A DNA stretch of 64,000 nt, taken from the NCBI GenBank assembly GCA_017499595.2, contig CM039009.1, positions 1,922,001-1,986,000 of the forward strand, given 5' to 3'. Of the stretch, positions 13,550-48,960 are shown piece after piece. The notes under the pieces were generated by a model, which was not told the DNA's origin, made no database searches, and saw nothing but the letters and a program-made list of their open reading frames with translations. Both the position numbers and the translations under genes were made by a program. The DNA comes from Psilocybe cubensis (Eukaryota). How positions within the stretch are numbered: position 1 is the stretch's first letter; the number at the start of each line of letters is the position of its first letter.

Positions 13550-16330
13550 AGTACTAAAATATATGCGTCGAAAACGCGTTGTATGATGATGATGAATAGA
13601 CATGCCTTAAGCGATTACGCCCGCCTTGGTGGTCCCACCGCCGTCCATATATTTATATTGAGCCAAAAGGTGCCTCATTCAAACTTGGAACAAGAAGCAG
13701 GGAATATTGGTATATCAGAGCTCAAAAGCGATCTCGGGTTCTAATACCAGCGAGGCCGTACACTGACGAATAGACAAATCTGAAGACATGAGGAGGATAT
13801 GAGTGAAACGAGTAGCATGGTTTTGAAGTGGAGTAGACATACATGAGATTTCGAGCGCATATACACATCTTAAAATGATGGCTGAAATCGAAGCTATGGT
13901 GGTGGCACAGAGGGAAGGAGGTCCAAATTCACAGAACCGCGTCGCGTCGGGTATTTATAGGCGTAGTGGCAAGATCAAGCAAGAACAAATATGGGTCCAT
14001 AGCCTATACCAAAACAGCAAACAAATATTAACTTGGAATGCCATCTCGCAACCGACTTACCAGAACGTATGTGATACTGTTCTGTAGATCCCCGAATAAT
14101 TGTCTTATTCAAAACTAAAGATCACACGGTTGTTCCGAATCAAATATGCATGGCATTAGTAGCCCAAAGCGAGTCCATCCGGACATGACAACAACGCGAT
14201 CTACTCTACAGGAACAAAATATCTTTGAAACCGAACAAATGTAATGAAAAGGTCCAATCACAGGGAAGGATAGAAATATTGTGATAGTGTTAATCGAGAC
14301 CAATATCCACTGTAATTGGGGTGTTTGGATCACGGAACTGTGGATTTGTGGAAGTTGAATGTTGAAGGATCAAGCTAAAAGCAAACGAAAACAAAGAAAA
14401 ATCTGAGCAAGTAAGTATTCGCGCTCTAATGGAATTCCAGAGTAAACTTACATAAAATAAAGAGGTCATACGCATCAGATCTCTTTGTCAATGTGACTCG
14501 GTGTTTGAAAGGGGTTGAGGGCTCCCTCGTATTATTATGGAACGGAAGGTGGTAGAGTGCTTCAATATTTGTGAAAAATTCGGACGGTGACTGGTTCGTT
14601 GCAATAGGAGGTTGGTAGTGGGCTTTAATATCGTGGTGGAAGAAGCGAGCAGAAGCCTTCACGAGTCCTGAATACCTAAAATTAGAGAGATACAAAGAAT
14701 GGGTTTGGAACTTACCAAAAAAGAGATCTTTCGACGCTAAGACCCGACGCATAACCGTAGTAGCTACTTCAATACTAAAACTAAATGAAAAGAATGAAAA
14801 CGGAAACGGAAACGAGAACACACTATAGAAATACAATGAGAGATCACCCTTTCGGAGCATATGATTTTTGGCGAGCGGACTCACATATGAGAGGGAATCA
14901 GGTACCCCAAGATCCGACTTGGCTCCAAATGGATGACGAATGGCAAATGGTTGAATAATTGGTGCTGATGCGCTGCCAGTGTGCATGTATTGCGGGGAAC
15001 ATGGCCAAAGTTGACGTGCGAGCCTTGCGAAGCAAAATTAGGCGGTAATGGGAAAGGGCGAGTTAAATTACCAGTCATGATCTTTCCAAAGCATGTCAGG
15101 GCAAAGAATATCTCGAGTGTATCGATTGCTAGAAGTATTGTATGTCAAAAGTAGAAAGACCGGTGGGTATACGAGACTCACTGAAGGTGCCCTTTCCAGA
15201 GGAGTGCTCATCCATATCCCATCCAAACATCGATACTATGGCATAAACACATAAGCAAAGATAATAAACCGAATTCGAGGAACGAAACGTGTTAAAGTAT
15301 TGCAATCAATGGTTTGCGGTGTCGTGTCGGGTGTCGTCCATGGCTAAGAAGGAAATAAATCAACCATATCAAACAACGAAAAGAAACAAACTAACCTCAC
15401 GCCAACTACCACTCGCCTAAGCCCGCCCAACACACAGGGTCCAAAGCAAGCTTTTATCAATCTCCACCCCTGCGATTCACGGTAGAAGCGACGATGTCCT
15501 GCAAGTCTACCGCTACTGCTTAGGGGGGTGGGCGAACCAACCAGCACTCCGTACCTCACCCCCTGGTTTCCACGACCCCCGATTTACAGGGGTGGCGGCG
15601 GGGGGGTGCCACACATCGAGCGGGTAGGGTCAAATTTCAGCTGCCCCGCATGTCCTAAGACAATCGCGCACTCCAGCCTGACACCAGCAGACTGAAGATA
15701 CGCGACCTGAATGGAGTGGTATACTTCTGTGCTGGGCTTCTTGACCGTTGTGTGTGGGCGAGCCTGCGTTGTGTGGGGTTGGTTAGTGGCTTTTAGGACG
15801 GTGAGACTGACGGTATTGGTCCAAGGCGGGATGGTATAATTGCTGTGAGGCGTTGTTAACAATGTTCTAACCTAGGCGAGATGGACTTACGCATGTGAGG
15901 AGTTGCCAAACCAAGGGCGGTGAAGATAGCTCAAGGCGGGGTGATGAAAGTGCTATCAAATGATTTTCTTAGCATGTTTGACAAAGGCGGGTTTACTTCA
16001 ACTTACTTTAGTTGAATACGAGCTATCACAAGTGGATATAACATCAAAGGAATCAGTTGAGCTCTTCGAAAATGTAAAGAGATGATGGCGGAAGAGAGTC
16101 AAGAGACGATGGAGGTTTCCATCCTGACCGTCAGCATTCTTATACCCATCCAGGTATGTTCTTGTTTGTTTTCAGCCTCCCTCGATCTCCTTTGTGTCAT
16201 CCGCCACACGCCCAAAAAGAGAAGTTTCATTTCCAAAAGCGGTTGTTTGTATGCCGTTAGTGCACGCGTGTAATTCGTGCACAATAGGCGGGGTAAATGC
16301 CGAGTTTTACACAGGCATATGAAATCATTT
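13550..16330 (-). repeat. Family R copy A: putative spliced, structured non-coding gene plus a downstream second promoter block
   Basis: Direct repeat of 19510-22200. Minus-strand TATA at ~16139-16144, then a series of 40-60 nt GT-AG introns; no long ORF. Confidence 0.8.
15396..15763 (-). ncRNA. 368-nt conserved structured exon of family R (copy A)
   Basis: Bounded by CAG| and |GTTAGT. Same length and near-identical at 21334-21701 and 47392-47759. Terminal stem GCTCGCCCACACACA/TGTGTGTTGGGCGGGC plus internal hairpins. Confidence 0.55.
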
Positions 16331-16399
16331 GACCACCCTGGGCAGCCCACAACTACTCGGATGTTCGACCAAACTCAATTGAACTTTTCGTGATTCAAT

Positions 16400-17823
16400 A
16401 TTCAAGGCTGGAGGTCACACAAAGATTCCAAATCAAACGTGTGTGGCATTAATAGCCCAAAACGTATCCTAATGGACGTGACAACAATGCAAAGTACTAC
16501 GAGGCATGACTATAATTCAAGGCAACTAAAATAATGAAAATCCTTTGCGAGGCAGAATGTAAAGGGTCGAATCGATGAGGAAATTAAAATCATAGTAAAA
16601 ATATATAAGTAATGGGGTATGACTTTCATTCCGGCCGATTTCTATTGTAAGTTGGTTGATTCGTTACGGAATATTGAAGGTGGAAACTGGGTTTATCTAA
16701 ATAAAAAAAAAGAAATAAGACTTGGCCAATTTAGTACAGACAATGGAAGAAACCAATAGGTTAGACGTACATAGAATACTGAGGTCAAATGCATCAGATC
16801 TCTTAACACTCGGTGTTTGAGAAGGCTCCAGGTGGCTCCACTGGTGGCTCGTCGATTTTGTGGTCAATAGAGCTTGATGTTGGCTGGTAGTACCGATTGA
16901 AAAAATCAAAGCGAATTAACTGTGGAGTTCTTGTGATGGTGTATGACGGAGGCAGGGATTGAAAAGTTGGTTCGGGTAGTTAAACAGAGTCCTGAATACC
17001 TGGCATATTAGATTGAGACATTAAATTAAGTCAGACCTAGAACTTGCCTGGAAAGAGATCTTTCGACGCAACGACCTGATGCGTAACCGTTACAACTACT
17101 TGAAAAATAAAAATAAAAAGAAGTAAAAAAAGAAAACAAAACACCTGATGGATATATAATGAGGTGATCGTCCTTTTAAAGGAAATTATAATCGGTGGGC
17201 GGACTCACAGGCAAAAGGGAACCAGATGCTCCAAGATCTGACGGGACTGCATATGGCTGCTCGATGGTAATTTGGCTTGTGACAAGGATTAAATCGTTGT
17301 CGTTGTGATGACAGGTGAAGGTGTGTATGTCTGATGGATAGCCTAGGAAAATGAGAAACGGAAGCCTTGCAAAAGAGAAATTAGACGGGTATGCCATTAT
17401 GCAAATGAACACACCAGTCGCGATTTTTCCAAAGAACGTTAGAGCAAAGATTGATCTCAAATATGTCGAGGATTTCTAAGACCACGCAATGTTACCAGTT
17501 GAAAGAGTGATGGAAATGCGAGACTCACTGAAGCGCTCTTTCTAAAAGGTGATAACCCATATCCTAACCAAACATTGATGCTATGGCACAAAATGGTAAG
17601 CAATTGCTACGCGTTGATCTCGAGGAACGAAAGATATTAAACGTATGCAAGCATTCGTGACATCGTGCTGGTTTTCAATGTCGAAGCGTCTTGTCCGATT
17701 GCCTAAGGACATGAAAAAATAAGTCAACCATATCAAACCATAGAAGGGACAGAGTGACATCACCCCAACCATCACTCGCCTAAGCCCGCCCAACAAACAG
17801 GGTCCAAAGCAAGCTTTAATCAA
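16400..17823 (-). repeat. Family R copy B (diverged, 5'-truncated inside the structured exon)
   Basis: Shares blocks GAGGTCAAATGCATCAGATCTC, GAGTCCTGAATACCT, AAAGAGATCTTTCGACGC, GAGACTCACTGAAG and CTCGCCTAAGCCCGCCCAAC with copies A, C and D; homology stops at ~17823. Confidence 0.8.
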
Positions 17824-19509: not shown

Positions 19510-22200
19510 ATAAGTTGAATATATGCGTCGAAACAGCATTGGAATATTGAAAAGACACCTCTTAAGTGAGAAAGACTATCTTGATAGTCACTTTAACTGT
19601 CCAAATTTTGAGCTAGCAAGGAGACAGGGGGGATACCGAATGTGAAGGCACGAAGAGGAGGTGAGTGAAACGCCTTGTAAAGCGGAAAGAGGAGTAGACA
19701 AACAAGAGTTTTGAGGCGCATATAGCCACTTGAGACGTTGGCGGAAGTAGAGGTGATGGTGGTGGTAGAGGGGAAAGGAGGTTTGAATTCACAAAAACGC
19801 ATCGCGTCGGGTATTTATAGGCACGGTGGCAAGGTCAAGCAAGAACAAATATGGGTCCATAGAGGCCAAACAGCAAATAAATAATGACATGGAATGACAC
19901 CGAAGGACATGGAATGACGATTCGTAACGACTCGTTAAGCCCTAACCAGCATAAGAGCGATAGTGTGCTTTCAAGTCCCCACTTATCCTCTCTTATCGAA
20001 ATTGAAGGTCACACGACTATTCCGAATCAAATATGTATGACATTAATTGCCCAAAGCGAGTCCATCCGGACATGACAACAACGCGATCTACTCTACAAAG
20101 CCAAAAAGCTGTATAAAACCGATTAAAAGTAACTAAAAGGGCCCATCACAGGGCAGAATAGAAGGTCAAATAAACGAGAAGGTATTGAAATATGAGTGTT
20201 GTGTTGATGATTGTAATCGATATTAATATCTCGGGTTGGGGTTAATCTCGAAACTGTGATTGTGGATGTCGAAAGCAGGTTTCTAGCTAAATTAAAGGAA
20301 GAAAAAAACCTGGGCAAGTTAGTATCCGCGCTCTAATGGAATTACGGAGTAAACTCACATAAAATAAGAAGGTCATACGCATCAGATCTCTTTGTGACTC
20401 GGTGTTTGAACAGGCGTAAGGGCTCCCTCAGATCGTGGAATGAAAGGCAATAGTGCGCTTCAATTTAGGTGAATAATTCTGACTTTGCCCGGTTCTTTGC
20501 AATTGGAGTTTGGTAACAGGCTTGAATATCGTGGTGGATAAAGCGAGCGAAAGCCTTTAGAGTGCTTTGCATGTGAACTGGTAGACAAATAGTGAGGTTT
20601 CACGAGTCCTGAACACCTAAAATTAGAGAGGGACGAAGAATAGGCTTGGAACTTACCAAAAAAGTGATCTTTCGACGCAAAGACCTGACGCATAACCGTA
20701 GTCGCTACTTCAATACTAAAACTAAATGAAAAGAATGAAAACAAAAACGGAAACGAGAACAAGCTATAGAAATACAATGAGAGATCACCCTTTCGGAGCA
20801 TATGATATTTGGCGAGCGGACTCACATATGAAAAGAAACCAGATGCCCCAAGATCCGACTTGGCTCCAAATGGCTGACGAATGGCAATATTTGAATAATT
20901 GTTCCTGATGCGCTGCCAGTGTGCATGTATTGCAGATAACAGCCAAATTTGACGTGCAAGCCTTGCGAAACAAAATTAGGCGGTAATGGGAGAGGGCGAG
21001 TTAAATTACCAGTCATGATCTTTCCAAAGCATGTCAGGGCAAAGAATATCTCGAGTATATCGATTGCTAGAAATATTGCATGTCAAAAGTAGAAAGACCG
21101 GTGGGTATACGAGACTCACTGAAGGCGCCCTTTCCAGAGGAGTGCTCATCCGTATCCCAACGAAACATCGATACTATGGCATAGACTGGTAAGCAAGGTT
21201 ATTGCGCCGAATTTGAGGAACGAAACGTGTTAAAGTATTGCAGTCAATGGTTTGTGGTATCGTGTTGGTTGTCGTCCATGGCTAAGAAGGAAATAAATCA
21301 ACCATATCAAACAACGAAAAGAAACAAACTAACCTCACGCCAACCACCGCTCGCCTAAGCCCGCCCAACACACAGGGTCCAAAGCAAGCTTTTATCAATC
21401 TCCACCCCTGCGATTCACGGTAGAAGCGACGATGTCCTGCAAGTCTACCGCTACTGCTTAGGGGGGTGGGCGAACCAACCAGCACTCCGTACCTCACCCC
21501 CTGGTTTCCACGACCCCTGATTTACAGGGGTGGCGGCGGGGGGGTGCCACACATCGAGCGGGTAGGGTCAAATTTCAACTGCCCCGCATGTCCTAAGACA
21601 ATCGCGCACACCAGCCTGACACCAGCAGACTGGCAATACGCGACCTGAATGGAGTGGTATACTTCTGTGCTGGGCTTCTTGACCGTTGTGTGTGGGCGAG
21701 CCTGCGTTGTGTGGGGTTGGTTAGTGGCTTTTAGGACGGTGAGACTGACGGTATTGGTCCAAGGCGGGATGGTATAATTGCTGTGAGGCGTTGTTAACAA
21801 TGTTCTAACCTAGGCGAGATGGACTTACGCATGTGAGGAGTTGCCAAACCAAGGGCGGTGAAGATAGCTCAAGGCGGGGTGATGAAAGTGCTATCAAATG
21901 ATTTTCTTAGCATGTTTGACAAAGGCGGGTTTACTTCAACTTACTTTAGTTGAATACGAGCTATCACAAGTGGATATAACATCAAAGGAATCAGTTGAGC
22001 TCTTCGAAAATGTAAAGAGATGATGGCGGAAGAGAGTCAAGAGACGATGGAGGTCTCTCGTTCGACCGTCCCATTATTATAGTCTTTTAGGGTATGTTCC
22101 TGTTTGTTTTCAGCCTCCTTCGATCCCGATCTCAGTCATGTCATCCGCCTGTGGACAAAACGAGGAATCTGGTTTCTAAATGCGATTCTTTGTGTGTCTG
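19510..22200 (-). repeat. Family R copy C (close paralog of copy A; core exon 21334-21701)
   Basis: Near-identical to 15340-16110 at offset 5938; more diverged on either side. Confidence 0.85.
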
Positions 22201-27540: not shown

Positions 27541-27719
27541 GTTGGGAGAAGTGAACAAGATTTCTTGGACAATTTATGTTGTTCTGGGTGCTCAGTCTGG
27601 CCTGGGTTGCTGTGAGGATGACCTCACGATTCCGTCTCTCCTATGTCAACCTCGTCATTGACCCCGACGATTCTGTTTTCTCAAATACATTGTAAATAAC
27701 CATTTTTAGAAAAAGAAAT

Positions 27720-27871
27720 TCTTTTTTTGGACGCGTGGCGGGCGACATATATTAAGGGAAGCAGAAAACAAACAACAACATACTCCGGAGGGGTATAAAA
27801 ATCGGACGGTCGAGCAGATATGCCTCCATCGTCTCTTGACTCTCTTCCACAACCATCTCATCATATTTTGG
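27720..27871 (+). repeat. Family R copy D, 5' part (TATA and start region), split by the KDZ insertion
   Basis: GGGTATAAAAAT..GACGGTC..CCTCCATCGTCTCTTGACTCTCTTCC matches the reverse complement of ~16070-16150. Confidence 0.75.
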
Positions 27872-27900
27872 CAGCCTTACCTGCTACCTGAACCCATCAC

Positions 27901-33064: not shown

Positions 33065-33262
33065 GGCAAAGGTGTATTTTGCAAAGGGTATGCTGTAGGG
33101 GACGTATCTCACAACTTAGTTTACACTGGTACTTTACTAAGCTTTTTTTATTTCAATTTCATATGAGATTGGCTGGCTCTTTGGGGTGTGATTGTTGCTC
33201 AATGCACGTGAAAAACATTCAGATATTGATAAAAATGTAAAATGAAATTTTACTGAACCAAA

Positions 33263-35844: not shown

Positions 35845-35913
35845 CCTACGGTTTACGCGAGTTGTGAAGAGTTAGCTATGGGTAAGCGGTTGGGGCACAA
35901 AGGGTTTAAACCT

Positions 35914-35998
35914 CAGTGTATGTCCGTGCCCGAACATTCCTGAGGAAAACACCGCCTTTCGCAGTCCAACAGTGTATGTCCGTGCCCGAACATTCCTG
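35914..35998. repeat. 29-bp perfect direct repeat between the divergent TET and transposase genes
   Basis: CAGTGTATGTCCGTGCCCGAACATTCCTG at 35914-35942 and 35970-35998. Confidence 0.85.
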
Positions 35999-38900
35999 TT
36001 TTCTTGCCAGAGGGAGGGTGTGGAAACAAAGGGGGAAGGAAAGAGTGCTTGAAGACTTACCTTTCACGTTCAAATGTTGGTTGAGATCTAAGCAAGTTGG
36101 ATTGACGATGACGACAAAGATTAATGAATATTTCCCACGAGCGCGTGACTGCACTCAATGATTCCGAGTAGACCCTGAATAATGGTGAGTTGTCAATGCA
36201 AGCTTTTTACCTTTAACGCATAACCTTAATATGTCAAACTCTGACAGGCCCTCTAAGCGATCACGCACTGGTCGTTCATCATATCACGACACTGTGCCCA
36301 GCTTGAATAGGCACGATGTCATCCACGTCAGCGAAGGGACAATTCGAAATATAGGAGGAGTTTTTCGAGCGACTCGCAGATTTGAGTCGCCTCAACGTGT
36401 CGCTGGAACTTGGGAGCAAGTCACGTCTTGGGAACCGCCGGATGACGAAGAATATGCTTTAAATCCCGACGGGGATTTTTACAATACCGTCGTAGATCAG
36501 GAGGTGGTGGCCGAGGATGGCACAAAAGACACTGTAAAAAGACAACAGAGCAAGGTTTCGGTAAGAAATGAGTACGTTATGACAGCAGTAGACGCTAAAA
36601 CCATGCATAGAAACGGCCTCACGTAGTTTGGAAAGAGACCCACCGTGAAACATATCTGGAAGAGATTCTTCGCTGGGCCGGGCGCGGTGACTTCCGCCAT
36701 GCTACACAGTGTCCAGACTGCCTTGTACGAGGAGTAACGCCCGAGACTCCTGAATTCAGGTGTCGCGAATGCTTTTCGCCTGACCTCGTATGCCAGGCCT
36801 GCTGTGTGAAACGCCACAGATTACATCCCTTTCACCGAATTCAGGTAAGCTGTTTGGCATCCAGTTATCATCTAATATTATCTTTAACATACCTATCTTG
36901 TAGAGATGGACCGGCACCCACTTTTTGGCAGTTTCTCTAAACACAATTGGGGGAAAAATTCAGCTGAATCATTCCAGCGGGTATTGCAAAAACCCAACGC
37001 CGTGTCATGCCAGTTTTTTGGTGCTCCATACGAATGGAATTCATTCGGTCAACTTATTTTACTGTAACTGCTCCAGAGCTATCCCTCATCACTTGCAATT
37101 ACTCCGACGACGGCTATACCCAGCTTCACAAATTACTCCAAAAACAGTTGCAACTTTTGAGTTGCTGCGTCATCTCCATAAAATGGCATTAACTACCAAG
37201 GCCTCGACATATGACTTTTATCGCGCTCTTGAAAAGTCAACAAACAACACAGGGATTAACCTCCCACCCTCGCGTTACCCTGCACTATTCCGGATGATTC
37301 TTCAATGGCGGCATTTACAAATGCTAAAGTGGGCGGGGAGAGGGCATAGCCCCACAGGGGCTGCAGGTACAGGCGAGGGTGAGCTTGCAATTCAGTGCCC
37401 GTCTTGCCCACATCCCAGTATAAATCTTCCTGTTGGCTGGGAAAATGCGCCAGACGAAATGAAGTGAGTTATATTGATGTTCACTAGTATCCGATAGCTA
37501 ACGTTACTACAGATTCCTCTATATGGTTATGATATGCATGGACGCCAACTTCCGATTAAAAAATCAGATGGTGTCTAACTGGTCTCAAGACCCTGGGCTT
37601 GGAATCGGGTGGGCGTATATGATACCACTCAAAGGATATGAGGAGTATGTCAAGAGCCGGCTGTCAGACAAAGACGTAAGATTCAAGAGTTTGAATAGCT
37701 ATTGGTTACTGATACCGGGTCTAGATAAGCACATGCGTTGGGTTTCAAGCACTAGCCAAGGCCAATACAAAATTTTCAATTGGACTACGTTACACGGGCC
37801 TGGGACTTACAGTATGCGGTCGCTCAGAGATGATTATGAGAGTTGGAAATCTACATAAGGGAGAAAGGTGCGTGCTATCAATTTAATGCTAGATGAATTT
37901 GTGTTCTAAGAATTCATAGATATGCCAACATGGACTACATTTTTGCTTCAATTCTTCGAACATTGGCTGTACAATTTGTGCTGGCAAGCTACGATATAGC
38001 TTGTCAGTGGTTCATCAATCTTCTTCGGCGAATCGAAACACAGTGGCCAGATGAAATCAAGCCACGTTCCAACATCACACTGATGCCCGCAATCCCCAAG
38101 CTGCATGAGCCAATGCACAAGCAGCAAAATCATGAGCTATACTCCTACAACTACATGCCTGGTGTTGGTTTATCAGACGGAGAGTGCCCCGAGCGTGTAT
38201 GGGCGCCGCACAATGTCCTGGCAAACGCAACCAAGACTCAGGGTCCGGGTTCACGACATGACACTCTTGACGACCATTTCGGCTTTTGGAATTGGCTCAA
38301 ATATACGTCGATGGGAACTACGTTGCTTCGAAAGTATAAAAATGCGGTGGCTCAGCGAAATATTCAGACAGAGGGCCATCGGGGCTTGACAGATTCTTTG
38401 GAAGACCCAAGACTTGTGCCTGCATGGGAGAAAATGTGTGTCGAATGGGAGAAAGATCCCTTTCCAAAAACCACAGCAAAAAACCCATATTATGTGAAGG
38501 AGACTGGTAAGTGATCCCACCTATATTCATCTATCATATGCCTGATTAGGTATAGGTGCATCTGAAGCTGAAGTCAAGAAGGCCCTTCACGATGAAGAGG
38601 CTGAATTTTTATCTAAAGGTGGAACGTTACCGCACAAAACTACCCCGTCTGTCTTTATTGGTATGGGCCTAGACCTTGAGGAAGCACAGTAAGTTATATT
38701 CCTCGTCTACAACATAAGACTTTAACTTATAACATGGGTGCAGGCGGCGACTTAAACGGCTAGCTACCAACACGAGTGCAGATGCCACTATTCGCCAAGA
38801 AGGCACACTCACGGAGCAGCGAAATATCCTCACTACACGCATTCGGGCATGGGAGCAACTTGTTCCCATCTATATGCCAGGACTGCTTCAGTATCAGACA

Positions 38901-39267
38901 GATAATCCGCCGACAGAGCAGTCAACGCACGCCGAAGACATTGTCCTGTGGCTTCCATCAATGGTACCCGCAGAATGCAGAGAAACTATCTGTGTGGCCG
39001 GCTTGGCTGATGTCGAACAGAAGCTGCGGATGGCGCATATGACCGACTCTTTGAATGCAATACGGCAGATTCTCAAAATCAAGTCACGAATGATTGAATT
39101 CAAAAATAAAAACATACGAGGACAACGTGGGGGAACCAGGTCAACGTCAGTTATCGACCGCGTGCATGAGCGTGCACGATTTGCAGCAGGAAAATATCGT
39201 GCAGCTCGGAAAGCTTATTTCGAGTTGGCAGGACCTGGTAACTGGGAGCAGAATTACCGTATACTTG

Positions 39268-39715
39268 TGTCAGGGCAACACTATAATCAGTGTGACAAGG
39301 CCACCAACAAAGATTAAGCAAGAGAGAGAGAGAGAGCAGAGGGAGAGTAAGAGAGCAAAGAGAGAATAAGAGAGTGAGATAGATTCAATGGTTCTAAGAG
39401 ATCACACCAATGATAGTGGATATCCTAAGAGATTGAAGCTGAAGCTACAGCTACCTACAAGTCCAGTATTTATACTCTACAGCTATTCTAGAATATTCCC
39501 TACATTACATCATAAAGGAAGGTTAAAGAATAAAAGTGACATCATATAGAAAAAGGATGAGTAAGACTAGGAATCATATAGAATTTACTAGAAAGAAGTG
39601 GACCAAGAAGGCTGTGATGAAAGAAATAAACTATCTAATCAGATAATTGATAAGATAATGAAAGGATAAGATAATTCTGTGAAGATAAAGAGGGAAAACT
39701 GGAGAAACCCTGACA
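39268..39715 (-). repeat. 3' LTR
   Basis: TGTCAGGG..CCCTGACA; same sequence as 45196-45643. Confidence 0.95.
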
Positions 39716-42700
39716 TCACCCCCTCTCTAAGGCACATTTTCCACAATGTGCACATGGATGGGTTAGTTTAGAGGGTTTAAGAAGAGGAGGAGGTTCAGTA
39801 AAGTTAATAATAGGAGTGAAAGAAAGTCTATCAAAGGTCACAGCAGAAATCCTTCTAGGTGCTGAAGGATGTTTGGCATGGAAGTCCTTGATAGCCTTAG
39901 AAGCATTTTTCAAATGCTCTGCAGGCTCCCAAGTGCATTCTTCATTAGGATAGTTCTTCCATTTGACCAAATATTGAAGTTTGTTTCTAAAAAGTCTGCT
40001 GTCCTTGATAAATTCAACTTCCCACTCAGGATTTTCTCCTTGAATGACAGGAGGTGGTCTAGAAGGAGGCTTTCTTCCTACAATATCTGGGTGATAAGGT
40101 AGAAGTTTAACCACATTGAACACTGGATGGATTTTCATGGTAGATGGCAGCTTAAGCTCATAGGCATTAGGGCTAATAACTTTGGTAATTTTGTAAGGCC
40201 CATATCTTTTATCATCCAATTTCTTGGAGGGCCTATCAGTTTTGAGGTCCTTGCCATCCAACCATACCAAATCCCCAACTTTATACTGAGTTGGAGTACC
40301 TCTGTGTCTATTATAGAATTTAGCCATATCATCAGCAGCTTTTCTAAGTGCAGACTCTGCTTCTTTCCTGGCTTCTTCCATATTTTTCACAAAGGTATCC
40401 ACAGTGTCCATTTTACTATCTCTAAGGGGTTCAGTGCCCATTCTGGGATGTCTGCCATTATTGAGCATGAATGGTGTCTGCCTGGTTGAAGCCTGAACTC
40501 TATTGTTATAAGAGAATTCAGCTAGAGCTAACCATTCAACCCAATCATCTTGTCTATGGTTTATAAAGAGTCTAAGATACTGCTCAATTTCTTGGTTAAC
40601 TCTTTCAGTCTGACCATCAGTTTGGGGATGGTAGGCTGTAGATGAGGCTGTCTGGATACCAAGTATTGAGTTGAGTTCTTTCATAAACCTTGAGACAAAC
40701 TGTGGACCTCTATCACACAGAATTTTAATGGGTAAGCCATGGTGTTTCCAGACATAATCTCTGTATAGTCTGGCTGTCCCTTCAGAAGTGACTTCATCTG
40801 TAGTAGGGATAATGTGGATCATTTTACTAAGTCTATCCACAACCACCATAATGGCATTATACCCTTGACATTCTGGTAACCCCATAATAAAGTCCACAGA
40901 GATGCATTGCCAGACATCAGAGGGAATCTCAGTAGGAATTAAAAGGCCAAGAGGTTTGGCTGGAAAGGTTTTGGTTCTGTTGCATCTATCACAACCTCTG
41001 GTATAGGCTGCAATAAAATGTGACATTCCTGGCCACCAATAATTCCTAGAGACTAGCTCAATTGTCTTCCATTTCCCTGGATGTCCAGCAATGAAGGCAT
41101 CATGGTGCAGTTCCACAATCTTTCTTCTAAGATCTTTGTCCTTGGGAACATACACCTTCCCCCTGTAGAGAATAAGGCCTTGTTCTTCTGACCATTCCTG
41201 TCCTTCAATCTTCTTGGTAGAAGATTTCTTGAGCTCCTGAACTGCCTTGACCACCTTTTCATCCATCTCCTTAGCTTCTCTAATCTTCTTAAGAAGATCA
41301 TTTTCTGCACCAGTAATGGTAGCATGACCCTGCTTGAGAGCCTGGATTTTAAAGTAGGAAGGTTTGAGGAGAACTACATTTTGGTTATCATTCTCTCCCT
41401 TTTTATGATCTGGTCTCCTAGACAAAGCATCTGGCTTAAGAGATCTTTTACCAGGCCTATGATGAAGAGTAAAATCAAATCTGGACAGGAAGAGTGACCA
41501 TCTGGCTTGCCTTCTGCTGAGCTTTTGGGCAACCATAAAGTACTCTAAGTTTTTGTGGTCTGTCCAAATCTCAAAGGAATGTTGGGTTCCTTCAAGATAA
41601 TGTCTCCATTCATCTAGTGCTCTGATAATAGCCAGCATCTCTTTGTCATGGATCTCATAATTCCTTTCTACTTCAGATAGACTCTTAGACATAAAGGCTA
41701 CAGGATGCCATTTCCCATCTGATCCTTCCTGAGATAAAACAGCCCCAGTAGCATAATCTGAACTGTCTGCTTCAACTTTATATGGCTTGTTATCATCAGG
41801 GAAAATCAAGACAGGTGAAGAAGTGACTTTCTTCTTTAACTGGTCAAAGGCTTCCTGCTGTCTAAGACTCCATCTCCAGACTGTTCCTTTCTTTGTCAAT
41901 TCATGAAGGGGCTTAGCAATGTCTGCAAAATCCTCTATGAACCTTCTATAAAAATTAACAAATCCCAAGAATGATTGGACATCCTTGACATTTTCAGGTT
42001 CAGGCCATTTAGAAACTCCCTCTACCTTGACAGGATCCATCTCAATCCTGCCTTGTGAAATGATTAGTCCAAGATATTCAATCTTTTCCTTTTCAAATTC
42101 ACATTTCTCTGCTTTAAGGTAGAGTTTGTTCTGTTCTAAGATTTGCAGAACTTGCTTGACTACCTCTCTATGATGATCAAGAGTCTCAGTGAAAATTAAA
42201 ATGTCATCCATGTAGACAATGACAACATTTCCATCAATGAGCTCAATAAAGATATCATTCATCATAGTTTGGAAGGTAGCAGGACTATTGGTTAAACCAA
42301 AGAACATGACCAATGGTTCAAACAGCCCTCTATTGGTTCTAAAGGCTGCTTTCCATTCATCTCCCTTTTTGATTCTGACATTGTTAAATCCCCACCTAAC
42401 ATCAAGTTTGGTGAAGTATTTGGCTTTGCTGAGTTTGGTGATGATGTCAGAAATCAATGGAAGGGGGTAGGAGTTCTTGATGGTCATTTCATTCAGTTTT
42501 CTATAGTCCTGGACAAGCCTAAGAGATCCATCCTTCTTCTTGACAAAGAATACAGGGGAGGCCATAGGTGACTTGGAGGGTCTAATCCTGCCAGACTTCA
42601 GATTTTCCTCTAAAAAGGCATCAAGTTCCTTTTGTTCATTGGGAGAAAGAGGATAAATCTTGGATCTGTAAGGTTCAGAACCAGGTTTCAGCTCAATAGC

Positions 42701-43603
42701 ATGATCCCAAGGCTTTCTGTCTGGTAGCCTATCAAAAGATTCCTTTGAAAAAACACCTTTAAACTGATGATAGTGCTTAGGAACAGTTTCTTCAAAGGTT
42801 TTTTTAGGGGAATCAGCTTGCTGATGAGACTCTTCTGCTAATCTTTGAGACATAGTAGAAGTAGCATTAATAGACTGCTTCTGAGGATGAAGGTATGAGA
42901 TAAAAATTCTATCCTCAGGCTCAATCTCAGAATCAGAAGAATCTTCAATAGAATCATCTTCTTCTTCATCAAATTGAGGGAGTTTCCTCCTTTTGACTGC
43001 AGCTATTTTCTGCCTCTTTCTTCTGGCTCTTTTGGCTTCCATTTGGCAGTCAGAGGGACATCTAATAAACTGGACATCCCCTGTCTTCCAATCAACATCT
43101 GGATTATGGTGCCAAAGCCAAGTATGTCCAATGATAGCAGATTTGTCTCCCAAGTCACAAACAGCAAAGGTGGCCCTTTCTGTATGGTTTTTGTGTACCA
43201 TAATTAAGTCTACTTCCTCATGGATAGAGCCACTCTTGTTGAGAGTACCATCAACATTATAGACTGGAATGGCTCTAGAAAGTTTCCTTGTGTTGAGATT
43301 ATGATACTTCACAAAACCAGAATGCAGAAAGAGGCCAGTAGCTCCAGAATCAAGCAAAGCATCAACAGATAACCTTTTCTCTGTGTCCATTGTCTTTAAG
43401 ATGACAGACAAATGGGTAGAGGTTTTAGGATTATGGTTGAGGATGTAGATCTTTTCAGGGAAGGTAGAAAGAGAGGAAGAAGAAGACATGATTTCTGCAC
43501 CAGAATCTGAAGACTGAGGATCAAGTCTGTCAATTTCATTTTCTAGTACATTAAATCTATTCCATTGGGACATGTCTTTCACCAATGGTGCTTCTAAAAA
43601 TTT
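39716..43603 (-). CDS. pol: Pol polyprotein: protease, RT, RNase H, integrase, chromodomain
   Basis: LLDSGAT; YMDD; HH-CC zinc finger (HHDAFIAGH..CDRC); integrase core; chromodomain WEVEFI..QYLVKWKNY..TWEP; entered by -1 frameshift. Confidence 0.97.
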   Translation of the reverse strand, partial: KFLEAPLVKDMSQWNRFNVLENEIDRLDPQSSDSGAEIMSSSSSLSTFPEKIYILNHNPKTSTHLSVILKTMDTEKRLSVDALLDSGATGLFLHSGFVKYHNLNTRKLSRAIPVYNVDGTLNKSGSIHEEVDLIMVHKNHTERATFAVCDLGDKSAIIGHTWLWHHNPDVDWKTGDVQFIRCPSDCQMEAKRARRKRQKIAAVKRRKLPQFDEEEDDSIEDSSDSEIEPEDRIFISYLHPQKQSINATSTMSQRLAEESHQQADSPKKTFEETVPKHYHQFKGVFSKESFDRLPDRKPWDHAIELKPGSEPYRSKIYPLSPNEQKELDAFLEENLKSGRIRPSKSPMASPVFFVKKKDGSLRLVQDYRKLNEMTIKNSYPLPLISDIITKLSKAKYFTKLDVRWGFNNVRIKKGDEWKAAFRTNRGLFEPLVMFFGLTNSPATFQTMMNDIFIELIDGNVVIVYMDDILIFTETLDHHREVVKQVLQILEQNKLYLKAEKCEFEKEKIEYLGLIISQGRIEMDPVKVEGVSKWPEPENVKDVQSFLGFVNFYRRFIEDFADIAKPLHELTKKGTVWRWSLRQQEAFDQLKKKVTSSPVLIFPDDNKPYKVEADSSDYATGAVLSQEGSDGKWHPVAFMSKSLSEVERNYEIHDKEMLAIIRALDEWRHYLEGTQHSFEIWTDHKNLEYFMVAQKLSRRQARWSLFLSRFDFTLHHRPGKRSLKPDALSRRPDHKKGENDNQNVVLLKPSYFKIQALKQGHATITGAENDLLKKIREAKEMDEKVVKAVQELKKSSTKKIEGQEWSEEQGLILYRGKVYVPKDKDLRRKIVELHHDAFIAGHPGKWKTIELVSRNYWWPGMSHFIAAYTRGCDRCNRTKTFPAKPLGLLIPTEIPSDVWQCISVDFIMGLPECQGYNAIMVVVDRLSKMIHIIPTTDEVTSEGTARLYRDYVWKHHGLPIKILCDRGPQFVSRFMKELNSILGIQTASSTAYHPQTDGQTERVNQEIEQYLRLFINHRQDDWVEWLALAEFSYNNRVQASTRQTPFMLNNGRHPRMGTEPLRDSKMDTVDTFVKNMEEARKEAESALRKAADDMAKFYNRHRGTPTQYKVGDLVWLDGKDLKTDRPSKKLDDKRYGPYKITKVISPNAYELKLPSTMKIHPVFNVVKLLPYHPDIVGRKPPSRPPPVIQGENPEWEVEFIKDSRLFRNKLQYLVKWKNYPNEECTWEPAEHLKNASKAIKDFHAKHPSAPRRISAVTFDRLSFTPIINFTEPPPLLKPSKLTHPCAHCGKCALERG

Positions 43604-44703
43604 TTCTTTTCCTCATCTTTCTGCTCCTTGCCTTCCAAGATTAATTTCCCAAAGTAGTCAGCCAGTTCTTCATGGGTCATAGCATTGATGTTAACTGATG
43701 ACCTGCAGTTTACAGCCTTATGACCAGGCTTTCTGCACTTGAAGCAAACAATTGGCCTAACTGACTTCCATCCAGAGTCAACCTCCATGGGAACTACATC
43801 TGGTTGCTTTGCCTGAGCACCAAAGGTCCTAGAGCTGCTATTGGAAAAGACTGGAGGATTTGGAGTAGGCTTAGGAACAGCCTTGGGAGTTGGGGCTTTA
43901 AGGAAGGGAGAAGAAGAGGAGGAGGAAAGAGACTTGGTAAAGGCCTCACTCTGTCTCCACTGCCTATCTAGCCTGGTACTCCATTTAATCCATCCATCCA
44001 AGGTTTTGGGCATGTCAGGAACATAGTAGACTGCATTCCTGAGATTTTCATTAAGCCCAGCCTTGAATTGGTCTACCAAAGCAGCATCATTATACCCAGT
44101 ATCTGAGATCAGAGCCCTGAAGCTAGCAACATACTCATCAGCAGTCTGTCTGCCTTGCTTGAGCATGTGCATTTTATGCTTAGCTGTGTTGGAGGGGTCT
44201 GGATCTGCAAACACTTCCCTAAATTCATAAACAAAGTCAGCCCAAAGACCTTCTTGGGACTGAGCATTGTCTATTACTTTAGTCTTCTCATATGCCCACT
44301 TCCCAGCAGTACCTCCTTTCATATGAGATAGAGCACAAATAACTTTCTGAAAGTCATCTGTAATCCCTTTCCCATAGAAATATAATTTAAGCTGACTGAG
44401 GAAGTTTTCTGCCTTCTCCATAGAACCATCAAATGGATCTGGAGGTGAGACTTTAATGACAGAGTGTGAACAGGAAGGGGCAATATGAGGGGTAGGGAAA
44501 GAGTGAATATCTAGAGCAGCAGGTGGTGGTGGTGGTGGTGGTGATGGTGACTGACTGACTGGTTGCTGAGGGTGTGGTGGAGTGGATGATGACTGCTGCT
44601 GCTGTCTAAGAAAATTCAACTCTTGGGTAAGGAGCTGGACCTGATGCATGAGCTCTTCCACAGAAGGAGTGGTGGGAGGCAATTGGGAGGGGTCCATGTC
44701 CAT
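43594..44703 (-). CDS. gag: Gag with CCHC zinc knuckle
   Basis: PDPFDG, LKQGRQTADEYVASF, PMEVD, CFKCRKPGHKAVNC. Confidence 0.93.
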   Translation of the reverse strand: MDMDPSQLPPTTPSVEELMHQVQLLTQELNFLRQQQQSSSTPPHPQQPVSQSPSPPPPPPPAALDIHSFPTPHIAPSCSHSVIKVSPPDPFDGSMEKAENFLSQLKLYFYGKGITDDFQKVICALSHMKGGTAGKWAYEKTKVIDNAQSQEGLWADFVYEFREVFADPDPSNTAKHKMHMLKQGRQTADEYVASFRALISDTGYNDAALVDQFKAGLNENLRNAVYYVPDMPKTLDGWIKWSTRLDRQWRQSEAFTKSLSSSSSSPFLKAPTPKAVPKPTPNPPVFSNSSSRTFGAQAKQPDVVPMEVDSGWKSVRPIVCFKCRKPGHKAVNCRSSVNINAMTHEELADYFGKLILEGKEQKDEEKKNF

Positions 44704-45195
44704 GGGTAGGGGTAGGTAGGCTCTCTGATGTGTGTGTGGGAGAAGCTATCTACTGAAAGTGCCCTTGAAACTATACTAAGTATTCTAAAAAAAATATCTA
44801 TCTACTGGATACCCAGTTGTCACACCACTCAGGGCTCTAAACCTAGGATCACAGGGTTACTGGATATTTCCTAGACCACCAAAAACAGAACACTAGTAGG
44901 ACTGTGTCTGCCCCAACAGTTGGTATCCCTATCTACTAAGTTTACACACAGCACACAACAGAGAGTAGGAAAGATGATGAGCCAAAGATCTTGAGGAAAG
45001 GTCTTGAGGAGGATGTTGAAGATTGGTGGAGATGTAGAGATTGGTAAGAAGATTGGTGAAGAGGTTGATGAAGAGGTTGGTGGGTTGGAAGTGGAGGAAG
45101 AAGGTTGAGGTAATGGTGTTGAAGAGGTTGAAGAGGTGAAGAGTTTGGTGTTGAAAGAGAGATGGTGGAGTTGTCTTGAGAGAGCTTCAATCTTC

Positions 45196-45643
45196 TGTCA
45201 GGGCAACACTATAATCAGTGTGACAAGGCCACCAACAAAGATTAAGCAAGAGAGAGAGAGAGAGCAGAGGGAGAGTAAGAGAGCAAAGAGAGAATAAGAG
45301 AGTGAGATAGATTCAATGGTTCTAAGAGATCACACCAATGATAGTGGATATCCTAAGAGATTGAAGCTGAAGCTACAGCTACCTACAAGTCCAGTATTTA
45401 TACTCTACAGCTATTCTAGAATATTCCCTACATTACATCATAAAGGAAGGTTAAAGAATAAAAGTGACATCATATAGAAAAAGGATGAGTAAGACTAGGA
45501 ATCATATAGAATTTACTAGAAAGAAGTGGACCAAGAAGGCTGTGATGAAAGAAATAAACTATCTAATCAGATAATTGATAAGATAATGAAAGGATAAGAT
45601 AATTCTGTGAAGATAAAGAGGGAAAACTGGAGAAACCCTGACA
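45196..45643 (-). repeat. 5' LTR (minus-strand TATAAATA at ~45395-45402)
   Basis: Same sequence as 39268-39715; followed on the minus strand by a PBS complementary to the LTR itself. Confidence 0.95.
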
Positions 45644-46540
45644 ACTTGCAGACGGAGATATTCGAGCATATCAAGATCCTGCTCGGCTAGGACCCAGAAA
45701 GGGACGCCGCGGAACGCTTGATGATGAACAGGTCGCGGCAGGGATGGATGTAGAGAATCAGCCAGAAGAGGGGGATCTTTTCCTGTTCAACGAGGAGCGC
45801 ACCAAGCGTCAAGGATCGGGTCAGACACGGCGAACTCTGTCATGGATCTGGACGGTTCGTACCAATGCTGCAGACACAACAAGCAAAGAAGAGAAAGATG
45901 ATCTCTTGCGTGTTGAATGGGCGAGGAGCCGAGCTAGGGTCATGCGCGCAAAAGAGGAGGTTTCGATGTTGAAGGAAGAGATGCGGCGAACATTAGTGTT
46001 TTTGGACTGGAAAGCTGTCTGGTGGCGAGAACGCAAAAACGCTATCTCTAACGCGAGTAGCGATCGCTTGGAGGCCATTTCCGCATTTGCCATTGTGCAA
46101 GCTGACCTTCAAGATTCCTTGGCGGAGCATTTCCGAAATCTGTGGCGGTCTCCATTACAAGAGGCAACATTGCGTGCTGCAGGTTCTTCAATTGCTGCCA
46201 CTGAGCCCACATCAGTTTCTTCGACTGACCCTGCCTCGACATTGACATTGCTTGGAGATGGAGATGAAGGTGATGATAACGGTGACGACGACGACAAGTA
46301 CAACGAGGAAGAAATGTTTGAAGAGAGTGGTGTGGAGGAGTTGGATATCACTGCAAATAGTGTAGCAGCATTGGTGTAAATCAACATTAAATTCGTAGCT
46401 ACATACTTTACATGCAATTTAGAACGATATGTCGACGAGGAAAAAGGTTACAGAAATGCTGCCAAGCAAAGGTGGATAGCTGCCGCGTGCAGATAAGCTG
46501 CAAGAGATTCCAGCGGGAGTATGACGCGGTATGACGAAGT

Positions 46541-47052
46541 GACAGGAACCATCCATCGCGTCTAAAAATACGCCTGCATCAGAGGCAGTGCCAGGCCCAG
46601 ACCAGGGTGGGCAGGGGTGGGCCGAGATTGCGTCTAAAAATATACTTGCATCACTGATGAGTGATCATCAGGAGGCTGTGCGCGGTCCAGACCAGCAAGG
46701 GCGGTGTGGCACACGGCTACTGCACCCGCGAACATCCCAATCGGGAAGGCGCGCATTTAATTCCCCCGCGTCATCCAAACCCACCCCGACCAATCCATCC
46801 CGCCACCACCCCCGAACCCTGCGCAAACAACGCCGCCGCATTCTAGGCGCTGCTGGCTACCGACCCGTATTTTTTTCAGCCCGAACGGCGGCCCCAACGA
46901 CGAGCAACGCTATTCCGAACGGCCGGCATGCGTATTGACGCATTGTTTGGTGCAGCTGCCCAGCACGTGCTCAGACGCGGCGAATGCATCAAATGTGGCA
47001 ACTGGAAACTGCCAGGCTAGATATATACTGCCCACCTGGCAGTTTCCAGTAT
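46541..47052 (-). repeat. Right inner TIR of the KDZ element
   Basis: Reverse complement of 27901-28428. Confidence 0.95.
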
Positions 47053-47081
47053 ATGATACATCAGGACAGCAGGTAGAGGTG

Positions 47082-48960
47082 ATTTTGGAAGAGTTTCCCT
47101 AAATCCTTTGACGATTTATCTACTTGTGATATCTCTTACTCAAGTAACGTAAGTTAGACTTAATTCGCCCTTGTCAAACATTCTAAGAACATCATTGGAA
47201 AGCACTTTCATCACCCCGCCTTGAGCTATCATCACCGCTCTTGGTTTGGCAACTCCTCACATGCGTAAGTCCATCTTGCCTAGGTTAGAACATTGTTAAC
47301 AACGCCTCACAGCAATTATACCATCCCGCCTTGAACCAATACCGTCAGTATCATCGTCCTAAAAGCCACTAACCAACCCCACACAACGCAGGCTCGCCCA
47401 CACACAATGGTCAAGAAGCCCAGCACAGAAGTATACCACTCCATTCAGGTCGCGTATTGCCAGTCTGCTGGTGTCAGGCTGGTGTGCGCGATTGTCTTAG
47501 GACATGCGGGGCAGTTGACATTTGACCCTACCCGCTCGATGTGTGGCACCCCCCCGCCGCCACCCCTGTAAATCGGGGGTCGTGGAAACCAGGGGGTGAG
47601 GTACGGAGTGCTGGTTGGTTCGCCCACCCCCCTAAGCAGTAGCGGTAGACTTGCAGGACATCGTCGCTTCTACCGTGAATCGCAGGGGTGGAGATTGATA
47701 AAAGCTTGCTTTGGACCCTGTGTGTTGGGCGGGCTTAGGCGAGTGATGGTTGGCGTGAGGTCAGTTTGCTTCTTTTCGTTGTTTGATACGGTTTATTTAT
47801 TTATTCCTAGCCTCGGGCGATAACCAGCACGATGCTGCAAACCATTGATCGCAATACAATAACACGTTTTGTTCCTCGAGATCAACGCGTCCCAATTGCT
47901 TACCATTTTGTGCCATAGCATCAATGTTTGGTTGGACATGGGTCATCATCTTACAGAAAGAGCGCTTCAGTGAGTTTCGTACTTCCATCAGTCTTTGCAC
48001 TGGTAACATTATGTAGATTTAGAAACCCTCGACATATTCGAGATCAATCTTTGCTCTGTCTTTCTTTGGAAAGATCATGACTGGTGTGTTCAGTTACATC
48101 CTCCCACAACCGTCTAATTTCGTTCGTGTAAGGCTCGCATTTCTCATTTTCCCATCAAACATAAACACCGGCACTCGCAATTCCAACGACATGGACGAGG
48201 TCCTTGTCGCAAGTCACACCATCGCCGCGCAGCCACTTGTAGTCACGTCAGATCTTGGGGCATCTGGTTCCCTTTTACTTGTGAGTCCGTTCCCTGAGAT
48301 TATCATTTCTTCTAAAGGACAATCACCTCATTATGTATCCATCAGGTGTTTTTTCTTTTTTTATTTCGTTTTTATTTTATTTTTGAAGTAGTTGTAACGT
48401 TACGCACCAGGTCGTTGCGTCGAAAGATCTCTTTCTAGGGAAGTTCCAGGTCTACTTTGATTGAATGCCTCATTCTAATATGCCAGGTATTCAGGACTCG
48501 GTTTAACCACGCGAACCTCAGTGTAATCCCCAACTCCGGCATACACTGTCACACAAGAACTTTGCAGTTATAATCCGCCCTACAATTCTTCTAATCCGTA
48601 CAACCTGTCAACATCAGGCTCTTTCAAACACAAAAGGCAATAAACTACAACTGGAGCCGCCTCTAGCTTTATAAAACACCAAGTCTCAAAAGATCTAATG
48701 CGTCTGACCTTCTCATTTTATGTACGTTGATACGCAGTGCAGCTTGCTAACCACGGAAATCGCGCGCACCAAGTCCACTTTCCCACGCTTCACATGATCG
48801 CGGAACATCAATACACCACCGACATCGCCCACCGACACCGATATTCCTCGCTCCCGATTCAATTACTCATTTATTTCTCATCACCATTCCATTTTGTATG
48901 CGTCTTCGTAATATTTTAACAAATTTTCTTCATTTTAAAACCTGAATTTCATATACAGCA
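47082..48960 (+). repeat. Family R copy D, 3' part (core exon 47392-47759)
   Basis: Inverted relative to A, B and C; core near-identical to A/C, downstream exons closer to copy B. Confidence 0.85.

Follow-up and report, generated by a model that had tools for sequence, protein, structure and literature searches.

Family R of Psilocybe cubensis: spliced, TATA-driven units, most likely genes for long non-coding RNAs or orphan genes in decay

What, if anything, is made by a set of related units that each carry a promoter and a chain of short introns is the question raised by this locus of Psilocybe cubensis. The window analyzed here comprises 64,000 nt of P. cubensis DNA (GCA_017499595.2, CM039009.1:1,922,001-1,986,000), and all coordinates below are positions within it. 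An earlier note on this DNA had proposed four copies, A to D, of an unannotated, apparently non-coding unit designated family R. Pairwise alignments placed all four where they had been described, with A and C of full length, B truncated, and D split by a transposon. Runs X1-X4 were compared with them as contigs, X1 being regarded as RNA by guess only, with no run on record as RNA.

13550..16330, minus strand: copy A, full unit; TATA box at 16144-16138, pyrimidine-rich start at about 16115, X1 contigs on 13597-16209
16400..17823, minus strand: copy B, truncated, starting ~70 nt before the exon 4 end and ending inside exon 9
19510..22200, minus strand: copy C, full unit; TATA box at about 22081-22075
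27694..27874, plus strand: 5' piece of copy D; TATA box at 27794-27800 and the first ~50 nt of exon 1, severed by the KDZ insertion
47082..48960, plus strand: 3' piece of copy D; remainder of exon 1 to about exon 9, intron 7 donor lost (GG)
27875..47081: KDZ (Kyakuja-Dileera-Zisupton) DNA transposon, 19.2 kb, splitting exon 1 of D; terminal inverted repeats (TIRs) of ~550 nt (27878-28428 and 46541-47075)
39264-45491: Ty3-type LTR element nested inside the KDZ element

A (13777-16253) and C (19639-22196) agreed at 83% over 2597 nt, A (14708-15460) and B (17040-17823) at 67%, and A and D at 76% in the 5' piece (16069-16248 versus 27869-27694) and 80% in the 3' piece (14662-16073 versus 48500-47082). 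Similarity comparison across the window found no fifth copy in it. Copy B has neither promoter nor exons 1-3, and the donor of its intron 7 is GC; B, without a promoter, and D, with its exon 1 broken by the transposon, are probably dead copies. The TATA box and pyrimidine-rich start reported for A, C, and D were visible in A and D, to both of which C aligns: in A, the TATA box is followed ~29 nt on by CCTCC at 16115, and in D by a pyrimidine-rich stretch at 27823. The KDZ element is flanked by the repeat ATTTTGG(C/A)AG. The view that family R itself has no TIR, LTR, or target site duplication (TSD) held, as the TIRs and flanking repeat seen at D are those of the KDZ element and the copies showed no direct or inverted repeats at their own termini. 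A solo LTR or LTR-derived unit was also rejected, the 5' part not being repeated at the 3' end.

The proposed chain of short introns, with GTRAGT..YAG signals at homologous positions, was evident both from counts far above those of shuffled sequences and from X1 contigs that omit the introns. Intron units of the form GTRAGT..(40-66 nt)..YAG were counted on the transcribed strand, with 500 dinucleotide shuffles per copy as the null. A held seven such units, C six, the 3' part of D three, and B two, against shuffle means of 0.18-0.39 (0.34 for A and 0.39 for C); the observed number was reached in none of the 500 shuffles for either A or C, in one for D, and in eight for B. On the opposite strand, A and C each held a single unit and D and B none. 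The introns are as follows.

15953..16006, minus strand: intron 1 of A, 54 nt, GTAAGT..TAG; at 15952, a loose end of X1 carries the end of a D-like exon 1
15843..15890, minus strand: intron 2 of A, 48 nt; X1 joint 15842>15891, CT..AC, depth 341
15764..15811, minus strand: intron 3 of A, 48 nt, GTCAGT..CAG; by prediction alone, no X1 joint listed
15344..15395, minus strand: intron 4 of A, 52 nt, GTTAGT..TAG; X1 pieces within longer contigs stop precisely at 15343 in A and at 21281 in C
15129..15181, minus strand: intron 5 of A, 53 nt; X1 joint 15127>15182 with one letter between; homologue in C 21066>21120
14823..14884, minus strand: intron 6 of A, 62 nt; X1 joins of exons 6 and 7 across A and C, 20761>14885 and 14820>20826, with two letters between
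14668..14715, minus strand: intron 7 of A, 48 nt; X1 joint 14666>14715 (cut +1), CT..AC
14403..14451, minus strand: intron 8 of A, 49 nt; X1 joint 14402>14452, CT..AC, side 215
14004..14060, minus strand: intron 9 of A, 57 nt, GTAAGT..TAG; by prediction alone, not kept in C
21944-21891, 21828-21781, 21749-21702, 21333-21282, 21119-21067, 20825-20764, 20656-20609, and 20358-20310, minus strand: homologous introns of C; X1 joints back 21067-21119 and 20308-20356
47149-47202, 47265-47312, 47344-47391, 47760-47810, 47970-48022, 48281-48345, and 48722-48773, plus strand: homologous introns of D, placed by homology

X1 contigs precisely omitted 14403-14451, 14667/8-14714/5, and 15843-15890 in A, and 20308-20356 and 21067-21119 in C, each showing GT..AG on the minus strand. 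They also bridged introns 5 and 6, their pieces ended exactly at the borders of exon 5, and the loose end at intron 1 linked the D-like exon 1 to exon 2. None of these joints occurred in contigs of X2-X4 (depth 0). The contigs lacking predicted introns support the description of family R as spliced transcription units and, with the RNA nature of X1 itself guessed and the intron-less joints in agreement with it, the view that A and C are transcribed and spliced. On A and C lay X1 contigs, the longest of 457 nt, that jointly covered 13597-16209 and 19196-21987. X1 had no cover over B, the spacer between B and C (16210-19098), or 21988-22600, an observation that was not counted as evidence.

The 5' part of the unit was far more uniform than the remainder, and two features within it were delimited.

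15353..16073, minus strand: 721-nt 5' core (part of exon 1 to intron 4), at least 94% identical to 21291-22011 and to the reverse complement of 47082-47802
15396..15763, minus strand: exon 4, 368 nt; minimum free energy -161.9 kcal/mol, z -3.63, ends pairing (15+4 bp)

The core has a GC content of 0.52-0.62, versus 0.35-0.47 downstream, and its introns 2 and 3 are conserved like the surrounding exons (96-100%). At 40 variant sites from exon 1 to the start of exon 4, A equals C and D differs; at the next five consecutive sites, in exon 4 (15697-15640), C equals D and A differs; mixed patterns come after. Judged from these variants, the near-identical ~0.7-kb core reads as a gene-conversion mosaic and not as proof of function. 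As for predicted structure, the attribute "structured" stood for exon 4 (opposite strand, z -2.30), the only part with an excess, and failed elsewhere, where folding was no better than that of shuffles, 160-nt windows along the spliced RNA giving z from -2.4 to +2.25. The assertion that the conserved blocks are mutually complementary was not confirmed either, in that only the ends of exon 4 pair; the repeats inside A were limited to imperfect inverted repeats of 12-20 nt. No covariation backs any fold, A, C, and D being nearly identical in the core.

The coding capacity was then the central issue. The claim that no protein frame is conserved agreed with flat substitution counts over codon positions and with frames that differ between copies, and non-triplet length differences of homologous exons were likewise found (A/C/D/B: exon 5, 162/162/159/180; exon 6, 244/241/258/267; exon 7, 107/107/94/98 nt). 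Counted by codon position in the frame of the open reading frame (ORF) of A described below, substitutions numbered 36/35/40 between A and C, 84/78/75 between A and D, and 89/94/97 between A and B; codon periodicity gave p of at least 0.16 in every exon and pair with at least nine substitutions, and many indels were of 1 or 2 nt. The paralogues thus showed no kept frame, no excess of third-position substitutions, and no prevalence of triplet indels, the marks of a protein family. One long frame in A, however, had gone unrecognized in the first reading.

14293..15305, minus strand: spliced 267-codon open frame of A in exons 5-9; its first ATG is codon 26, and none of C, D, and B retains the frame

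Under homologous splicing, the longest frames were of 267 (A), 191 (C), 150 (B), and 133 (D) codons in differing registers, while shuffles of such pyrimidine-rich RNA gave a mean longest frame of 111-124 codons. The usual ORF cut-off for long non-coding RNAs (lncRNAs) is about 100 codons, and every copy exceeds it. The other attributes of lncRNAs were present: no ORF is conserved or constrained, and transcripts exceed 200 nt as judged from X1 contigs of at most 457 nt, the guessed RNA status of X1 being supported by the intron-less joints.

To place the family among known sequences, several libraries were searched. None of 10 family ORFs reached a Pfam family cut-off (best score 16.8 bits, E 0.008, where 27 bits were required), and none contained a transposable-element domain. 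The Rfam comparison suggested in the earlier note matched no family (Rfam 15: none at gathering score in 12000-50000 and, with E allowed up to 1, none in 13300-22400), and a translated match to a decayed protein or the interior of a transposable element, which that note had named as grounds for abandoning its reading, was not found in Pfam or the two protein libraries. A 203-aa ORF had no match in a word-index protein search. Another such search gave a single match, a 103-aa hypothetical protein representing a fifth P. cubensis paralogue, the C-terminal part of which reads exon 5 in the frame of the A ORF. The term "unannotated" therefore holds only in part, as this paralogue, located elsewhere in P. 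cubensis, has a gene model. With it, family R has at least five members, so far from P. cubensis only, the copies compared being those of one genome. The sole HMMER match of an exon 6 profile among 1.84 billion representatives (P0001, 1611 aa, a tandem peptide repeat matched in seven stretches) was rejected as compositional and spurious. As a control, the neighboring VWA protein was found at 100% identity (P. cubensis UniRef entry) in the same library, together with 78 further proteins of E 1e-10 or lower, mostly named fungal proteins; detectable outside relatives or domains of family R were not. In a metagenome scan, a 22-nt exon 4 motif had no matches, and the 22 loci matching a degenerate 21-nt exon 6 motif were dismissed as chance matches because similarity ended at 22-25 nt in all 22. 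The literature sources on spliced lncRNA families of Agaricomycetes, lncRNAs of P. cubensis, and Kyakuja elements of Psilocybe contained nothing specific in the portions covered.

That the family goes back to a protein-coding gene, young or orphan, appears unlikely, though this deserves serious weight; A would perhaps still encode ~242 aa in exons 5-9, the other three copies being transcribed pseudogenes. The 267-codon frame spans four independently predicted introns, three with X1 joints (introns 5, 7, and 8) and one with bridging contigs (intron 6), and its length was reached in only 6 of 2000 dinucleotide shuffles, which leaves room for a protein from A alone. Moreover, 2-nt and 1-nt indels between A and C in exon 6 jointly restore the frame, the exon 6 translations share 14 invariant residues across the four copies, and the paralogue annotated as a 103-aa protein uses the A frame in exon 5. 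Against this stand the lack of codon periodicity in any exon or pair and the broken frame in three of the four copies. The ORF would also begin ~680 nt into the RNA, after four introns and several upstream ATGs, its translation is of low complexity and has neither a Pfam nor any other relative, and long chance frames do arise in pyrimidine-rich RNA (shuffle maximum, 289 codons).

It is very unlikely, in our estimation, that the copies are segmental duplicates of an incidentally transcribed locus that drift neutrally and have no function, alike at the 5' end only through ectopic gene conversion. Conservation is no higher in exons than in introns, as neutral decay would also give, A-C identity drops from 100% to 65% between the 5' and 3' ends, the core variants form a mosaic, and the region is rich in transposable elements and in flux (one KDZ and two Ty3-type elements). 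However, splice donor and acceptor positions between two subfamilies are kept above their surroundings (28-31 of 36 versus 58-63% elsewhere, at 6+3 positions per intron in introns 5-8; Fisher p 0.0004-0.047), a test of 36 positions in copies that share ancestry and not significant with the GT/AG positions alone (p 0.15-0.44). The promoter and TATA box are kept in three copies otherwise 64-74% identical, and X1 depth on the joints was 45-341, though contig depth gauges expression poorly. An origin within a non-autonomous mobile element, or in capture by a transposon, with spread as DNA, would account for several copies, for members elsewhere in the genome, and for the transposon neighborhood; summed depth in the core was also several-fold that of the flanks in DNA-like runs, but A, C, and D each contribute contigs there. 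We regard this origin as a long shot: neither terminal repeats, TSD, nor remains of transposon proteins (no transposase- or reverse transcriptase-like translation) were found, similarity fades at both the 5' and 3' sides with no sharp end, copy number is low, and the units carry a TATA promoter and introns of their own.

On balance, we lean toward family R being lineage-specific, Pol II-type spliced units of P. cubensis whose RNAs carry no selected protein frame; since no frame appears to be kept by selection, the products would most likely be lncRNAs. In the proposed scheme, the TATA promoter of each full copy would direct an RNA of ~2.1-2.5 kb from which a series of GT-AG introns, 48-62 nt each, is removed. 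The promoter, splice donors, and GC-rich exon 4 would be maintained, and the sequence of the other exons would not. The near-identity of A, C, and D over 0.7 kb would stem from repeated, possibly GC-biased gene conversion among paralogues and not from a conserved fold. Exon 4 would be the candidate domain if RNA function is sequence-specific; otherwise, transcription and splicing of the locus may matter, or nothing. A bolder version, in which functional Psilocybe-specific lncRNAs act through the GC-rich exon 4, closed by a long-range stem, as a scaffold or small-RNA precursor, kept nearly identical among several paralogues by selection and gene conversion, with the long pyrimidine-rich 3' part only a spliced carrier, strikes us as distinctly unlikely. 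Overall, the family most likely consists of lncRNA genes or decaying orphan genes and is real, not extraordinary.

Several known systems offer comparisons. Non-coding snoRNA host genes have a pyrimidine-rich 5' start, many introns, and unconstrained exons, and family R resembles them in its TATA/pyrimidine-rich start, many introns, and drifting exons with kept splice sites; this identity was rejected, as introns of 48-62 nt are too short for a snoRNA and no Rfam family was matched in 12000-50000. Telomerase RNA uses a template of 1.5 repeats and was likewise rejected: exon 4 contains a single CCCTAA and no such template, and the family is multi-copy. Like families of transcribed unprocessed pseudogenes or orphans, family R comprises tandem and dispersed DNA duplicates with introns and promoter, a conversion mosaic, broken frames, and one long ORF; unlike them, it has no intact parent gene or protein relative in the libraries searched. 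Compared with fungal long intergenic non-coding RNAs (lincRNAs), such as those catalogued for Ganoderma lucidum (PMC4059649), family R is similar in being Pol II-type, spliced, lineage-restricted, and devoid of a conserved ORF and an Rfam family, and differs in being multi-copy, with nine short introns and a 0.7-kb 5' part homogenized between paralogues.

If these RNAs are functional, few lncRNA families described from mushroom-forming fungi would equal theirs in being multi-copy and evolving in concert, and it would be a tractable one, with clear promoter and introns and a single candidate domain. Should the units be orphan genes in decay instead, a lineage-specific locus would be seen duplicating, homogenized at its 5' end, and disrupted by a transposon. 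Either way, gene predictors can make short "hypothetical proteins" of such units, as happened with the fifth paralogue.

All four copies of family R, the multi-intron gene described as TATA-driven, were recovered where the earlier note had placed them by repeat finding and by blastn of copy A against the whole window, and neither approach revealed a fifth copy within the window.

Copies of family R
13550-16330, minus strand, copy A
16400-17823, minus strand, copy B
19510-22200, minus strand, copy C
27694-27874 and 47082-48960, plus strand, copy D in two pieces

In blastn, A and C were 83% identical over 2.6 kb, D showed 76-80% identity to A, and B matched only 14106-15460 of A; a four-way alignment grouped A with C and D with B as two subfamilies. 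In A and D, a TATA box was read directly, with a pyrimidine-rich stretch about 29 nt further on, and C aligns with them. Copy B, without a promoter, and copy D, whose promoter lies 19 kb away from its body, are probably dead.

On the transcribed strands, GTRAGT..YAG units of 40-66 nt numbered seven in A, six in C, three in D and two in B, and the opposite strands held one, one, none and none, respectively. Dinucleotide shuffles yielded means of 0.18-0.39 units, the observed count being reached in 0/500 (A), 0/500 (C), 1/500 (D) and 8/500 (B).

Introns of copy A
16006-15953, minus strand, I1
15890-15843, minus strand, I2
15811-15764, minus strand, I3
15395-15344, minus strand, I4
15181-15129, minus strand, I5
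14884-14823, minus strand, I6
14715-14668, minus strand, I7
14451-14403, minus strand, I8
14060-14004, minus strand, I9

Splicing was assessed with contigs of public sequencing runs aligned to 13000-22600, of which run X1 is RNA by guess only. In A, the X1 contigs omitted I2, I7 and I8; in C, they omitted I5 and I8. The ends of the omitted stretches read CT..AC, that is, GT..AG on the minus strand. I5 of A was bridged with one letter between, exons 6 and 7 were joined across A/C chimeras, X1 pieces in both A and C stopped precisely at the two exon-5 borders, and the sequence of a loose end at 15952 was that of the last part of a D-like exon 1. These joints, bridges and ends thus supported seven of the nine introns, I3 and I9 having no X1 support among the joints listed for this region. 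In runs X2-X4, which carry the same organism label, none of the intron-skipping joints of X1 was seen over the same interval. A variant X1 joint that runs from 15842 to 15919 through 28 other letters, together with loose ends that recur in the DNA-like runs, showed that further paralogues lie outside the window. Between the subfamilies, 28-31 of the 36 splice-consensus positions of I5-I8 were kept, versus 58-63% elsewhere (p 0.0004-0.047); for the GT/AG positions alone, the difference from other positions was not significant.

Spliced A contains an open frame of 267 codons that extends across exons 5-9 and has its first ATG at codon 26. Of 2000 dinucleotide shuffles made from the spliced RNA, only 6 held a frame of at least this length; the shuffles averaged 124 codons owing to the pyrimidine-rich composition. 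When searched by tblastn against the window, this frame was interrupted in C, B and D by stop codons and changes of frame, and the longest frames after homologous splicing (191 codons in C, 133 in D, 150 in B) lay in shifted registers. Substitutions by codon position in the frame of A were flat (36/35/40 for A-C, 84/78/75 for A-D, 89/94/97 for A-B); exon by exon in five copy pairs, no 3-periodicity was detected (all p at least 0.16), and 1- and 2-nt indels were common. Within the first 600 nt of the RNA, no ATG-started frame exceeds 48 codons, and the first ATG opens a 19-codon frame that is absent from D.

Ten family ORFs gave no Pfam match above cut-off, and a 203-aa unspliced ORF had no match among 5.8 billion proteins. 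A profile built from the four exon-6 translations matched one protein among 1.84 billion representatives, a tandem-repeat protein hit in 7 stretches, which was rejected as spurious; in the same library, a neighbouring 1050-aa ORF used as control retrieved, at 100% identity, a UniRef entry of Psilocybe cubensis, together with 78 other proteins, mostly named fungal ones. The sole match of a 95-aa ORF running from exon 3 to exon 4 was a P. cubensis 'hypothetical protein' of 103 aa with no Pfam domain. Since its first 36 residues match A, C and D at 75-83% and it also matches exon 5 of A at 57%, this protein is the gene model of a fifth paralogue, and the term 'unannotated' in the earlier note was not quite right.

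Support for the supposed RNA structure was confined to exon 4, and was weak there: this exon folds at -161.9 kcal/mol (z -3.63; other strand, z -2.30) with its two ends paired. Along the spliced RNA, 160-nt windows ranged from z -2.4 to +2.25, with values above zero prevailing in the 3' half. Inverted repeats inside A are only short and imperfect, and Rfam gave no match for the family.

Exons were no better conserved than introns. The core, a 721-nt 5' part (15353-16073 in A, 21291-22011 in C, reverse complement of 47082-47802 in D), is at least 94% identical among A, C and D, a figure that rises to 96-100% over exons 2-4 with their introns. Past intron 4, the three exons that follow are 64-74% identical between A and D, those beyond exon 7 44-65%, and the introns 46-71%. 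Between A and C, identity is 100% where the copies start at the 5' end and has dropped to 65% by the 3' end. The core is a mosaic in its variable sites: A equals C and D differs at 40 sites between exon 1 and the beginning of exon 4, C equals D and A differs at five sites in a row within exon 4 (15697-15640), and mixed patterns come after. Such a mosaic is the signature of gene conversion between paralogues, among them copy D, which is inverted and lies 11-30 kb away. The GC content of the core (0.52-0.62, versus 0.35-0.47 downstream) would fit GC-biased conversion.

On balance, we slightly favor a lineage-specific family of Pol II transcripts that are spliced but encode no conserved protein, namely lncRNA genes whose 5' part is homogenized via gene conversion. 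The earlier observation is confirmed and its interpretation partly supported: the spliced family and its lack of a conserved protein survive, structure has weak support in exon 4 alone, a small-RNA precursor would be a hypothetical role, and 'unannotated' does not quite apply. An orphan protein gene, young or decayed, is a doubtful alternative: the long frame of A, which may still code, stands beside flat substitution patterns and broken frames in the other copies. Transcribed duplicates without function, with exons no more constrained than introns and yet splice-consensus positions kept, seem improbable, and a unit related to transposable elements, for all the elements in and beside copy D, very improbable. 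Relatives outside P. cubensis were found neither in the protein libraries nor in two metagenome scans, which returned nothing usable, and the accessible portions of the literature contained nothing specific to the family. Family R is a real, tidy example of an already known kind.

Genes and elements around the copies
5798-6838, plus strand, ubiquitin C-terminal hydrolase (Peptidase_C12), ordinary host gene at the window edge
23560-27540, plus strand, VWA/VIT-type gene containing the 1050-aa ORF, directly upstream of the D promoter
39264-45491, Ty3-type LTR retrotransposon nested inside the KDZ element
49207-54731, second Ty3-like element, directly beyond the 3' end of copy D
59685-60548, minus strand, SPT5 transcription elongation factor (KOW, NGN domains), ordinary host gene at the window edge

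Exon 1 of copy D is interrupted by a 19,207-bp insertion (27875-47081) with TIRs of about 550 nt (27878-28428 and 46541-47075, 98-100% complementary), flanked by the repeat ATTTTGG(C/A)AG (27865-27874 and 47082-47091) that occurs singly in A. Its CxC2 (36904-37467) and KDZ transposase (37897-38514) domains identify it as a Kyakuja-Dileera-Zisupton (KDZ) transposon. The nested Ty3-type element has 300-nt direct repeats of 100% identity (39264-39563 and 45192-45491) and two minus-strand ORFs, gag/zf-CCHC (43594-44745) and RT-RNaseH-integrase-chromo (39716-43612); as both are open, its insertion was probably recent. In the second element, DUF4100 lies in an 847-aa ORF, and the RNase H and integrase zinc-binding domains lie in one of 922 aa. 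Within the KDZ element, a 60-nt tandem repeat (31424-31543, two copies, 82% identity) is surrounded by overlapping ORFs on both strands without Pfam match. In the B-C spacer, a short plus-strand ORF (18171-18326) weakly matched GmrSD_C (DUF1524-type nuclease; E 4.7e-4, 20.5 bits, under the cut-off of 23) and may be a gene fragment; it adjoins a 183-nt tandem duplication at 18959-19244.
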